Shown: one piece after another, positions 267 through 3,109 of the stretch
How the letters are laid out: each line of letters opens with the position of its first letter
How positions within the stretch are numbered: position 1 is the stretch's first letter
Source of the DNA: Minisyncoccota bacterium
Lineage (GTDB): Bacteria; Patescibacteriota; Minisyncoccia; Phycocordibacterales; UBA5272
Direction: 5' to 3'
Assembly: GCA_018061825.1 (NCBI GenBank)
Contig: JAGOTK010000002.1
Span: 100 to 64,099, forward strand
Length of the DNA stretch: 64,000 nucleotides
The notes under the pieces: model-generated
Databases searched by the model: none
What the model was told of the DNA's origin: nothing
What the model saw: only the letters and a program-made list of their open reading frames with translations
Position numbers and translations under genes: made by a program

Positions 267-914
267 ATGACAACTTATCAAAAAGTCGTTTCGCTGTTGG
301 GTAAAGACTTCGCAGCAATTCTTGAGCTTTTAAAAAAGCTCTTTATTACCTGGAATCTTGATTCTAAAAAATTTTTCCACACAATTAACCATCTTAAAAA
401 AGAGGAGATTATTGGTCTCATGGATGGGACTTATGAAATTGTACGTAAAAAAGTTGTAGGAAAGCTTTTCGTATTTTCTGAATTCTTTTTTACCAGACAA
501 GGGCTTTACGTTTGGGATTCTTTAAAAGAAAGAATTGGCTCTATTTACAAAGAGTCGACAGAGTACAAAAGTATCGACGATCTAAAACCAGCTTTTGATC
601 TGAATCGTAATATGTATGATTCAGAAATAATTAAAGAAATGGGCGGAGAAGAAAAAGTAAGAGAAAATGCTGTGACGATGGATCAGATCGAGCAATTGAT
701 TAAAAATCAATGGGAAGGTAAGGCTGGTATTATGCTTAATAATGGCTTTGCAAATATTTTTTACGTTATAGGTAAAAATAACCAGTTGTTTGCTGTGGAT
801 GTGGGCTGGAGCTCTGGTGTTCAGGGGTGGAGCGCGTTTGCTTTCGAGCTTGATGGGCATGGTCGTTGGCGTCAGGGCCGTCGTGTCTTTAGCAACAAGA
901 ACTTTGTCTCTTAA
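267..914 (+). CDS. DGR target (variable) protein, 215 aa; C-terminal ~40 aa encoded by VR (ligand-binding fold presumed C-type-lectin-like); N-terminal domain of unknown function
   Basis: ATG at 267; the C-terminus (AVDVGWSSGVQGWSAFAFELDGHGRWRQGRRVFSNK) is the diversified counterpart of the Asn-codon-rich TR; TAA at 912-914. Confidence 0.75.
   Translation: MTTYQKVVSLLGKDFAAILELLKKLFITWNLDSKKFFHTINHLKKEEIIGLMDGTYEIVRKKVVGKLFVFSEFFFTRQGLYVWDSLKERIGSIYKESTEYKSIDDLKPAFDLNRNMYDSEIIKEMGGEEKVRENAVTMDQIEQLIKNQWEGKAGIMLNNGFANIFYVIGKNNQLFAVDVGWSSGVQGWSAFAFELDGHGRWRQGRRVFSNKNFVS
785..899 (+). repeat. DGR variable region (VR), including the conserved 3' IMH-like segment cgtgtctttagcaacaa
   Basis: About 115-bp repeat matching TR; where TR has A, VR has G/T/C at about 23 positions; one non-A mismatch (835 C vs TR 1278 T). 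Confidence 0.8.
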
Positions 915-921
915 TTCTTTT

Positions 922-979
922 AATCCCTTGGATACTTTGCGCTTTGCGCTTTGCGCTTTGCACTTTGATCCAAGGGATT
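922..979 (+). terminator. Long stem-loop (12-bp stem aatcccttggat/atccaagggatt, 34-nt loop containing (CTTTGCG)x3) immediately 3' of VR, followed by T5; candidate DGR cruciform/homing enhancer and terminator
   Basis: Perfect 12-bp inverted repeat 922-933/968-979; tandem heptamer in the loop; T-run 980-984. Confidence 0.6.
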
Positions 980-1227
980 TTTTATTATATAATTTATTTG
1001 AGTTTGAATATGTAAAAGATTATGGTTTTTTACTGAACTCAAGAAATGTATAAATGAGAATTAATAAAATTATTATTTTATTAATAGGTTTATATAATTT
1101 TTTAATTAAAAATAATATTGTTGGTATTTCATTTTAGTAAATTTTATATTTAGAATTAAATTCAATCTGAAAATTAATAGAAATATTTTTTGACAGATGG
1201 TGGTATAGAAGAAATGAGATACAAAGT

Positions 1228-1342
1228 TTTGTTTGCTGTGAATGTGAACTGGAACTCTGATGATCAGAAGTGGAACGTGAATGATTACAAGCTTGATGAG
1301 AATGGTAATTGGAATCAGGGCAATCGTGTCTTTAGCAACAAA
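1228..1342 (+). repeat. DGR template repeat (TR), non-coding, rich in AAC/AAT (Asn) codons in the VR frame
   Basis: Gap-free alignment to VR at a +443 offset; adenines at the mismatch positions; the ORF-track entry 1190..1429 is a spurious TTG-initiated frame over the TR. Confidence 0.8.
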
Positions 1343-1349
1343 TATTACT

Positions 1350-1377
1350 CTCTCCTAATCTTTAGGAGAGTTTTTTT
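1350..1377. terminator. Hairpin (ctctcct/aggagag) plus T7 just 3' of TR; overlaps the avd stop codon and likely acts as a bidirectional terminator
   Basis: 7-bp perfect stem 1350-1356/1364-1370, loop aatcttt, T-run 1371-1377; the convergent avd ends at 1355. Confidence 0.5.
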
Positions 1378-1717
1378 CTATCTGTCCAAGCCATCCACCA
1401 AGCATTCTTCCTATTTCATCAATCGGTAAAGAAAGTAATTCATATTTTTTAGTATCTATTGATCTTGTTTCCCAGAGCACAAGTAAAAGTATTTTCAGTG
1501 TATCGAGTTTTCTTATCGCTGTCCTTAAATATGGAATCTTATCATCTTTTTTTACAAAGCTTGCACTAGAAATCATTTCTATTATTTCTATAAATAAATT
1601 ATCTATTTTTATTGCTAGAGTATAGCGATGAGTTTTTGGTATCGTGTGATAGACACTATACCAAAATAAATATATACTTTTCACTTTTTGCAAAATTGGA
1701 ATTAATTTTTCTTGCAA
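1355..1717 (-). CDS. avd: Accessory variability determinant (Avd)-like four-helix-bundle protein (23S rRNA-intervening-sequence protein family)
   Basis: 120 aa; sequence pattern typical of the four-helix-bundle family (…LFWYS…IGRMLGGWLGQI…); sits next to the DGR RT; apparent TTG start at 1717. Confidence 0.7.
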   Translation of the reverse strand: MQEKLIPILQKVKSIYLFWYSVYHTIPKTHRYTLAIKIDNLFIEIIEMISSASFVKKDDKIPYLRTAIRKLDTLKILLLVLWETRSIDTKKYELLSLPIDEIGRMLGGWLGQIEKNSPKD

Positions 1718-1759
1718 TTTCGTCGGGGGGGGGTAATATTAGTAGTATTCATATATTTT

Positions 1760-2776
1760 ATGAAATATTATACTACAAGCTATGAAGAAATTATTTCTCT
1801 AGAAAATTTACTTTTAGCATATAAAGAATTTAAAAAAGGAAAAACTAAAAAGAAGGATATGATAGAGTTTGAATTTAATTTAATGAGTAATTTGATATAT
1901 TTACATAATGAATTGAAAAATAAAATATATAAGCATGATAATTATTTACATTTTAAAATAAATGATCCAAAAGCAAGAGATATACACAAAGCAAAAGTGA
2001 AAGACAGAGTTCTTCATCATGCTATATATAGAAAACTCTATCCATTTTTTGATAAGGCTTTCATAAGTGATTCTTATTCTTGTAGAAATGATAAAGGTAC
2101 ACATAAAGCTTTAAAACAATTTGAAAAATATACAAGAAAAGAAAGCAAAAACTATACTCGTCAGTGCTATATTTTAAAATGTGATATACAGAAATTTTTT
2201 GCAAATATTGATCATAATATTTTACTTTCTATTTTAAATAAAAAAATTCTGGATAAGGATATTATTTATCTTTTAAAAAATATTATTGAAAGTTTTAATA
2301 CAAAAGAAAAATTAGAAAAAGGATTGCCTCTTGGAAATTTAACTTCTCAACTTTTAGTAAATATTTACATGAACGAGTTTGATCAATTTGTAAAACACAC
2401 TTTAAAAGTGGAATCTTATATAAGATATGCTGATGATTTTGTATTTATTAATAAAGATAAAATATGTTTAGAAAAATTAAAATATCAAATAGCTGATTTT
2501 TTAAAACAAGAATTAAAACTAAACCTTCATCCAGATAAAGTTTTTATTAAAACAATTTATTCTGGAATAGATTTTTTAGGATTTATATATTTTGCAAAAC
2601 ATAAAGTTTTAAGAACTAATACAAAAAGAAGAATGCTACGAAAATTAAAAGAAAATGATTTTAAGAAAGAAAGTTTAGATTCTTACTTTGGATTATTAAA
2701 GTTTGGAAATACTTTCAAAATTCAATCAAAAATTAAAAAAGAAATGGCAATACTTGTAATAGAAGAAAAGTTTTAA
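1760..2776 (+). CDS. DGR-type reverse transcriptase
   Basis: RT motifs present: SYSCRNDKGTHKA (motif 2), LPLGNLTSQLLVNIYMNEFD (motif 4 with the DGR-specific I/LGxxxSQ), SYIRYADDFVFI (motif 5, YxRYxDD), GFIYF (motif 7). The probable ATG is at 1760; the ORF-track start at 1712 would overlap avd. Confidence 0.85.
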   Translation: MKYYTTSYEEIISLENLLLAYKEFKKGKTKKKDMIEFEFNLMSNLIYLHNELKNKIYKHDNYLHFKINDPKARDIHKAKVKDRVLHHAIYRKLYPFFDKAFISDSYSCRNDKGTHKALKQFEKYTRKESKNYTRQCYILKCDIQKFFANIDHNILLSILNKKILDKDIIYLLKNIIESFNTKEKLEKGLPLGNLTSQLLVNIYMNEFDQFVKHTLKVESYIRYADDFVFINKDKICLEKLKYQIADFLKQELKLNLHPDKVFIKTIYSGIDFLGFIYFAKHKVLRTNTKRRMLRKLKENDFKKESLDSYFGLLKFGNTFKIQSKIKKEMAILVIEEKF

Positions 2777-3001
2777 TTAAAATATAAAAATAAAAATAAA
2801 AAATATTTATAAATTTATTTTTTATAAAATTTTTTTTTAAAAAATAAAAAATATTTTTTGAGTTATCCACAAAATATTTTTTAAAAACTATTGTATAAAT
2901 TTTTTTTGAATGAGATAATAATAATAAGAGAGGCAGACCAAAGGTCCAAGGTCAAAAATTAAAAGCGCACTCTCTAGTATTTAATACTAAAAAACAAAAA
3001 T

Positions 3002-3109
3002 ATGGTAGCAAAGAAAAAAGTAGCAAAGAAAAAAGTTGCTAAAAAAGTAGCACACAAAAAAGTTGCTAAGAAAGTAGCAAAGAAAAAAGTTGCTAAGAAA
3101 AGAAAATAG
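3002..3109 (+). CDS. Possible 35-aa lysine-rich basic peptide (MVAKKKVAKKKVAKKVAHKKVAKKVAKKKVAKKRK), histone H1/Hc1-tail-like; encoded by three tandem ~27-nt repeats
   Basis: ATG 3002, TAG 3107-3109, strong terminator 22 nt downstream; no SD; shorter than the ORF-track cutoff. Confidence 0.25.
   Translation: MVAKKKVAKKKVAKKVAHKKVAKKVAKKKVAKKRK

Follow-up and report, generated by a model that had tools for sequence, protein, structure and literature searches.

We analyzed a 64,000-nucleotide stretch of contig JAGOTK010000002.1 (GenBank assembly GCA_018061825.1, positions 100 to 64,099 of the forward strand) from a Minisyncoccota bacterium, referred to below as the window. This AT-rich DNA (~27% GC) contains a system of ~2.6 kb with the make-up of a diversity-generating retroelement (DGR), consisting of a target gene whose 3' end carries a variable repeat (VR), a template repeat (TR), the accessory gene avd on the reverse strand and a reverse transcriptase (RT) gene, in that order (Table 1). 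The surrounding genes are housekeeping genes, namely those for a hibernation factor (HPF) and a peptidyl-prolyl isomerase (PPIase), fmt and def. Because of these neighbors the element is chromosomal, and we regard it as a cellular and not a phage-borne DGR.

The VR and the TR form an ungapped direct repeat of 113 bp, with 80% identity and an offset of 443. Within it, 22 of the 23 mismatches are located at TR adenines, the remaining one being a T>C change at position 835, and 77 of the 78 TR positions that are not A are conserved in the VR. With 35 adenines among the 113 TR bases, the hypergeometric probability that at least 22 of 23 mismatches fall on A amounts to 2e-13, and the mismatches are therefore not evenly spread over the four TR bases. 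A first-pass annotation, made by eye, had placed this gapless alignment at 785-899 and 1228-1342 and had counted 23 of 24 mismatches at A. The repeat stands at that place, with slightly narrower limits, and the count was essentially right: between 785 and 899, 25 positions differ, of which 23 have A and two have T in the TR, and the boundary columns account for the two additional ones. The final ~17 bp had been described as identical in both copies; we found 18 bp (881-898), with divergence beginning at 899/1342. The TR is not part of any real gene; it sits in the 440 bp that separate the target gene from avd.

The TR had also been considered to avoid stop codons by being built of AAC and AAT codons. 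This holds for nine variable codons, which are AAY, the others being GAT, CAG, TAC, GAG and two AAG; it does not hold for the two AAG codons (K187 and K194), which are able to mutate to TAG. Up to 19 codons are changeable, corresponding to a theoretical diversity of ~4e17 proteins. When both strands of the 64 kb were scanned with TR adenines treated as N, only the VR at 786 was recovered and no second VR-like copy was found. Similarly, profile and phmmer scans of all open reading frames (ORFs) of the window gave one target and one RT, and no second copy of either.

The best match of the RT in the PDB was bRT, the RT of the Bordetella phage DGR (8ub7_A; E = 3.8e-41, residues 8-298), as compared with 3.9e-23 for a group II intron RT (GsI-IIC) and 1.3e-19 for a retron-type RT. 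By these E-values, the enzyme is nearer to bRT than to the other two types. The motifs LPLGNLTSQ and YIRYADD, singled out at first pass as specific for DGRs, are indeed present and align with those of bRT (LGNLTSQ with IGSLTSQ, YADD with YMDD), as does R73 with R74 of bRT. The minus-strand ORF of 120 codons, taken for an Avd-type protein in the same annotation, matched Pfam PF22296 (bAvd; 55.8 bits for a cutoff of 40), PHROG phrog_3206 ('Avd protein of DGR', 3e-18) and, below its cutoff, the NCBIfam model NF033474 (DivGenRetAVD).

We considered the possibility that the repeat results from an ordinary partial gene duplication that happens to lie beside an RT which has nothing to do with it (from a retron, a group II intron or a defence system). 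In its favor, the best named NCBIfam match of the RT was a group II intron RT/maturase model, which reached 147 bits, far under the 300-bit cutoff. Yet, a duplication would not be expected to show mismatches specific for adenine, a pattern that we also found in 63 related loci. Furthermore, the locus includes avd, no solved structure matches the RT better than that of bRT, and Rfam gave no intron RNA and no retron msr/msd family. We therefore attach practically no probability to this explanation.

Public relatives of the window were compared to follow the behavior of the repeats between samples. These were L001 (GCA_020047435.1, the same locus as L086) and three further samples retrieved through the exact Avd protein, which makes five assemblies with the window. 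Over 5.9 kb, L001 is identical to the window save for three single-nucleotide polymorphisms, 22 VR positions (20 of them at TR adenines) and a patch of 170 bp within the RT gene. The TR is identical in 5 of 5 assemblies, and the assemblies that contain a VR (the window, L085, L001 and L087) have four different VRs made from identical TRs. In pairwise comparisons these VRs differ at 15 to 22 positions, of which 15/15 to 20/22 are at TR adenines. The presence of four different VRs beside identical TRs indicates that the VR has been replaced repeatedly since the near-identical genomes split. The active hypermutation system proposed in the first-pass annotation agrees well with these four independent assemblies, which share the TR and have VRs differing almost only at TR adenines, and the DGR is thus active, or was so until recently.

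In a related metagenome-assembled genome (MAG; GCA_030837425.1), one TR (L005 3470-3582) matches two VRs on different contigs, the first adjoining the cassette and the second at a distance, in a paralogous target (Table 1). The mismatches were at A in 24/25 and 23/23 cases, respectively. The A-specific mismatches of this TR with the remote VR indicate that action in trans on a paralogue takes place in that lineage. A different situation was found in a relative from activated sludge (L003 243-1480), where the target is present at the same synteny (HPF, PPIase, fmt, def) with no TR, avd or RT in between, and no TR anywhere on the 5-kb contig. The VR of L003 looks diversified and retains a CTTAG/CTTTG tail and a hairpin; its cassette either was lost or lies elsewhere in that genome.

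The patch in the RT gene (1835-2005, 170 bp), which falls in the N-terminal region of the enzyme, comprises 44 substitutions between the window and L001/L085, corresponding to 74% identity; outside it, the sequences are the same. L001 and L005, a more distant locus, share 87% identity inside the patch, as compared with 75% in the remainder of the gene. As L001 is nearer to L005 in the patch than over the rest of the gene, this suggests recombination between RT alleles.

A fossil DGR, i.e. one in which the VR was diversified in the past and the machinery is now dead, would be compatible with the target of L003 standing at the same syntenic site without a cassette, with the one non-adenine substitution present in each of two VRs and with the mosaic patch of the RT. 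However, RT, Avd and TR are intact and the TR is the same in five assemblies; four near-identical genomes with four unrelated VRs imply turnover after a very recent divergence; and the structure of the flanking RNA has been kept, all pairs being standard. We consider a fossil improbable and favor a DGR that is, or recently was, at work.

It is very probable, in our view, that the locus is a real DGR of a bacterium of the Patescibacteria (candidate phyla radiation, CPR) and that it operates as follows. The TR would be transcribed within a structured RNA of ~270 nt, comprising a 5' domain, the TR, a 3' stem-loop and a U tract. RT and Avd would bind this RNA and copy the TR to complementary DNA (cDNA), random nucleotides being inserted opposite the template adenines during synthesis, and the cDNA would replace the VR at the 3' end of the 215-codon target gene. 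Up to 19 codons, on the last three beta-strands of a domain of ~150 residues, would be changed in this way, generating variants of a binding surface. Of this scheme, the adenine pattern of TR and VR, the identity of RT and Avd, the recent turnover of the VR between near-identical genomes and the conserved RNA structure are established by the present data. From the analogy with the Bordetella phage system we infer, in addition, that priming occurs in cis, that Avd binds the 3' stem-loop, that the cDNA integrates and that the target binds a ligand. The 5' domain, a long-range duplex and the stem-loop agree with the RNA elements of other DGR RNAs, including those of CPR (bioRxiv 10.1101/2023.10.23.563531).

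Several observations weigh against this reading. Two VR changes, one each in the window (835 T>C) and L001 (843 T>G), are not at adenines, and the variation of the VR is known between samples, not within one population. The score of Avd with NF033474 (73.9 bits) is just below the cutoff of 80. A GC-rich initiation of mutagenic homing (IMH) element is absent at the 3' end of the VR, and the hairpin that follows the VR is AT-rich with a 34-nt loop; the features that might be of IMH type are the 18-bp identical 3' segment, the divergent flanks and this AT-rich inverted repeat of 12 bp. Prediction of promoters for the TR RNA, avd and RT was uninformative in such AT-rich DNA (22 sites for 20.9 expected). 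Finally, no signal peptide or membrane segment is visible by eye in the target, so that its location, and hence its role in binding at the surface, is uncertain.

Table 1 Features of the DGR in the window and VRs matched by the TR of a related locus (window coordinates unless a locus is named)
Feature	Position	Strand	Remarks
Target gene (variable protein), 215 aa	267-914	+	N-terminal helical module of ~62 aa (267-452) and VR-bearing C-terminal domain of ~150 aa
VR	786-898	+	Codons 174-211 of the target gene; last three beta-strands of the C-terminal domain
Seven CTT[T/G]G copies	902, 927, 935, 942, 949, 956, 963 (902-967)	+	Downstream of the target stop codon
Inverted repeat	922-984	+	AATCCCTTGGAT (922-933)/ATCCAAGGGATT (968-979), T run 980-984; encloses the heptads
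Long-range duplex, 5' strand TAATATT	1113-1119	+	Pairs with AATATTA 1341-1347; brackets the 5' domain and the TR
Structured RNA domain directly 5' of the TR	1121-1228	+	Covariation; three helices
Helices of the 5' domain	P1 1124-1135/1211-1222; P2 1139-1141/1149-1151; P3 1165-1169/1194-1198	+	
TR	1229-1341	+	35 adenines, 30 of them no further 3' than the last variable site observed
9-bp stem-loop	1350-1370, U tract 1371-1377	+	CTCTCCTAA-TCT-TTAGGAGAG; overlaps the avd stop codon
avd, 120 aa	1355-1717	-	TTG start; PF22296, NF033474, phrog_3206
G9 homopolymer	1725-1733	+	Within the 42 bp separating avd and RT; reads C9 on the avd strand, just ahead of the start codon
RT gene, 338 aa	1760-2776	+	RVT_1 8e-22; phrog_1423 1.6e-101
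VR of L005 TR, adjoining cassette	L005 3038-3150		
VR of L005 TR, paralogous target	L002 1525-1637 (approx.)		Beside secE/nusG

The target had no sequence match in Pfam, NCBIfam, PHROG or the PDB. This leaves unchanged the earlier remark that its N-terminal domain has no recognizable function, as no family was matched in the libraries searched. Homologues of the target vary in the VR columns only. Close relatives of the full-length protein number only ~10, and a profile made from these was used to collect the family of the C-terminal domain (E ≤ 1e-3). This family of ~150-residue domains comprises 1562 cluster representatives, mostly proteins of 150-230 residues with VR-like tails. Pfam was matched by none of the 104 members searched, and a profile of 104 C-terminal domain sequences found no sequence relative in the PDB.

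The structure of residues 61-215 was modeled by AlphaFold2 with a predicted local distance difference test score (pLDDT) of 95.6, while the prediction for the N-terminal ~60 residues was of low confidence. Foldseek returned nothing for the target among viral models at E ≤ 0.001. The top-ranked long structural alignments of the VR domain (105-112 residues) were throughout with proteins of the FGE-sulfatase/C-type lectin (CLec) group, i.e. PorK, pFGE, EgtB, OvoA, PvdO and the DGR target TvpA (2y3c); animal C-type lectins also appeared. These highest-ranked alignments argue against the possibility that the VR domain is a distinct fold tolerating hypervariation independently, and not a variant of the CLec fold. 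So does the position of the VR in the C-terminal strands, as in Mtd and TvpA, and Roux et al. (PMC8144416) anticipate that VR domains without annotation will prove to be new variants of the CLec fold. We regard a distinct fold as rather unlikely. The C-terminal domain, whose last three beta-strands hold the variable codons, would most likely serve as a ligand-binding surface. The availability of a confident structural model for this large, unnamed family of VR-bearing domains is one of the more useful by-products of the analysis, the non-coding features described below being the others.

The N-terminal module of the target (~60 residues, 267-452) recurs at up to 80% identity on other VR-like C-termini (P0010, P0063 and P0121) and, since it is combined with different C-termini, may be a shared docking or localization module. 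The VR-bearing domain is also found in tandem (P0011, P0086 and P0112), with five copies in a protein of 926 residues and two copies in a protein that has an apparent Sec signal peptide. The latter may point to a function outside the cell in some lineages.

In a search that took a single genome for each species, 559 relatives of the RT were confirmed. The best 80 are 55-77% identical to it and almost all come from MAGs labelled Patescibacteria/CPR. The succession of VR, ~450 nt, TR, reverse-strand avd and RT was observed in 63 of the 64 related loci with a TR/VR pair, the exception being L015. At least eight unrelated-looking target C-termini occur in this RT clade, the type present in the window accounting for 11-14 of 62-64 loci; this diversity fits the 'unknown VR' classes of Wu et al. 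According to Wu et al. 2018 (PMC5758913), architecture B3, TR-(avd)-RT, makes up 90% of CPR DGRs, and Roux et al. 2021 (PMC8144416) delineated a CPR-restricted DGR clade 2, to which the element of the window corresponds. It resembles the CPR B3 DGRs in gene order, strands, the small target with a C-terminal VR and the chromosomal housekeeping context, and nothing essential differs; an additional AT-rich insertion of 14 nt in P3 distinguishes its 5' RNA domain from those of the B3 relatives. In view of the B3 layout and the correspondence with clade 2, the element is not unusual but a standard, textbook member of a known group.

By itself, the locus therefore changes little: it is one more well-documented and evidently active DGR in a clade known to be abundant in CPR. 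Any novelty would reside in the fold of the VR domain and in what the 5' RNA domain, the heptads and a poly-G tract do. Being compact and fully delimited within ~2.6 kb, and accompanied by natural VR variants from four samples, the system should be convenient for reconstituting a DGR of the CPR type.

The DGR of Bordetella phage BPP-1, in which the order is mtd-VR-avd-TR-brt, shares with the window the A-specific transfer from TR to VR, the RT motifs [I/L]GxxxSQ and Y[A/M]DD, Avd, structured RNA flanking the TR, a stem-loop just 3' of the TR and a duplex between upstream and downstream sequences. In contrast with BPP-1, the avd gene of the window lies between TR and RT and is read from the other strand, an arrangement without a long Bordetella-type spacer RNA between TR and RT; in its place there are ~100 nt of conserved structure 5' of the TR. 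Furthermore, a GC-rich IMH is absent, CTTTG heptads and a large-loop hairpin come after the VR, and the element is cellular.

Four non-coding features within 267-2776 had gone unnoticed at first pass: the 5' domain, the long-range duplex, the 3' stem-loop and the heptads. The 5' domain, the stem-loop, the heptads and the poly-G tract are conserved throughout the clade. For the 5' domain, whose conserved single strands include GGUGGUAUAGA (1199-1209), covariation was assessed in 45 relatives. Ninety-six percent of the cells were paired, as compared with 75% after shuffling and 32-54% after sliding, and there were 257 double-change cells versus 74 in the shuffles. A covariance model (R1), built with the window and its close relatives left out, matched the 64 kb significantly only once (1121-1229; 42 bits, E = 7e-7), and every pair in that match is standard.

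At gathering thresholds, Rfam assigned no family to the TR flanks; its matches were confined to tRNA and, in one relative, a group I intron. The Rfam motif RT-16 (RF03019), a candidate RNA motif near RT genes whose role is uncharacterised (Weinberg et al. 2017, PMC5737381), reached 34.1 bits directly 5' of the TR in one relative (L074), under the gathering score of 50. The match shares the order outer stem, AUAAAAUACA, inner hairpin and GGUG, the inner hairpin being longer in the Rfam model. RT-16 had no match in the window at E ≤ 10, and one of the seven loci searched gave one. We rejected membership of the 5' domain in RT-16, the sole match being below threshold; a relationship between the two may exist.

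Clade-wide, the long-range duplex is formed by ~9 nt just upstream of the 5' domain and ~9 nt just 3' of the TR. Among position-equivalent duplexes in 59 loci, cognate strands gave on average -7.1 kcal/mol and non-cognate strands -5.2 kcal/mol (permutation p < 0.0005). The duplex of the window is weak (-3.2 kcal/mol), with only 7 A-U pairs. Immediately downstream, the stem-loop and U tract (1350-1377) constitute a terminator-like site. A hairpin and TTTTGTTTT follow the TR in nearly all of 60 loci, and inspection of the individual sequences showed that the stems change in a compensating manner. MAFFT/RNAalifold recovered only 4 pairs of this hairpin, the loops being of variable length.

These two elements resemble the 'cPRT Stop duplex' and the 'Avd-binding stem-loop', respectively, which Handa et al. 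(bioRxiv 10.1101/2023.10.23.563531) derived from the Bordetella cryo-EM structure. The same authors reported an Avd-binding stem-loop of ~9 bp just 3' of the TR in 207 of 278 DGRs, including CPR ones. By analogy, the stem-loop at 1350-1377 is a candidate Avd-binding element and/or terminator of the TR RNA.

Downstream of the VR, the last five CTT[T/G]G copies are exact 7-nt heptads (CTTTGCG/CTTTGCA) located in the loop of the 12-bp inverted repeat. In 62 loci, the motif CTT[T/A/G]G is present after the VR at 2.76 copies per 80 nt for a background of 0.25, an 11-fold, strand-specific enrichment, with a spacing of 7-8 nt in 63/109 cases. L085 and L087 have one heptad fewer than the window, and the remote VR of the related MAG (GCA_030837425.1) has the same CTTTG-type tail. 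The heptads are thus a candidate cis element on the target side. The inverted repeat (922-984), probably the terminator of the target gene, is placed where other DGRs have a post-VR hairpin; related loci have comparable GC-rich hairpins after the VR tail, and an inverted repeat after the IMH has been described (PMC5758913).

The idea that the DGR RNA pairs with the VR tail as a targeting code was evaluated and rejected, as cognate and non-cognate pairs were not convincingly different. The duplex energies gave p = 0.03-0.08 with long and gappy duplexes, and the longest exact complement averaged 6.72 nt for cognate and 6.51 nt for non-cognate pairs (p = 0.06). The heptads showed no locus-specific complementarity to the DGR RNA. 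UCAAAGG, a conserved strand of P3, has a general complementarity to CCTTTGA, a kind of pairing that covariation cannot test. Because the cognate pairing test was unconvincing, an inverted repeat of 32 nt (891-922/1206-1237, 78%) was not treated as meaningful.

The G9 homopolymer between avd and RT is the sole G/C run of at least 7 in the 64 kb. A tract of G6-G13 is found at the same position in 58 of 63 related loci, the frequency of such runs in the flanks being 0.065 per kb. In one sample whose Avd and TR are the same as those of the window, the tract is G8. It may act as a slipped-strand switch or as an element that regulates avd and RT.

In the literature that we searched, the 5' RNA domain, the CTTTG heptads and the poly-G tract were not found described as elements of DGRs. 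It is conceivable, though we hold it to be doubtful, that they make up a set of cis elements of the B3 clade that is undescribed for the DGRs studied so far. If so, the ~100-nt domain 5' of the TR would take over the roles of the Bordetella 3' spacer RNA, in a permuted DGR RNA; the CTTTG arrays after every VR would replace the GC-rich IMH and cruciform as the signal for target recognition; and the length-variable poly-G tract would be a slipped-strand on/off switch for hypermutation. The non-coding features thereby provide testable hypotheses for cDNA priming, target recognition and regulation in B3 DGRs.

Beyond the RT gene, the window contains a perfect DnaA-box-like TTATCCACA at 2863-2871, followed (2927-3109) by a conserved sequence of ~60 nt (GAGAGGCAGACC...GCGCACTCTC) and an ORF for a Lys/Ala-rich peptide of 35 residues (3002-3109), which is built from 12/15-nt tandem repeats. 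All three are kept in L003 despite its overall divergence. In another relative, a group I intron (L040 7487-7692; Rfam RF00028, 56 bits) is located ~2.5 kb downstream of the DGR RT.

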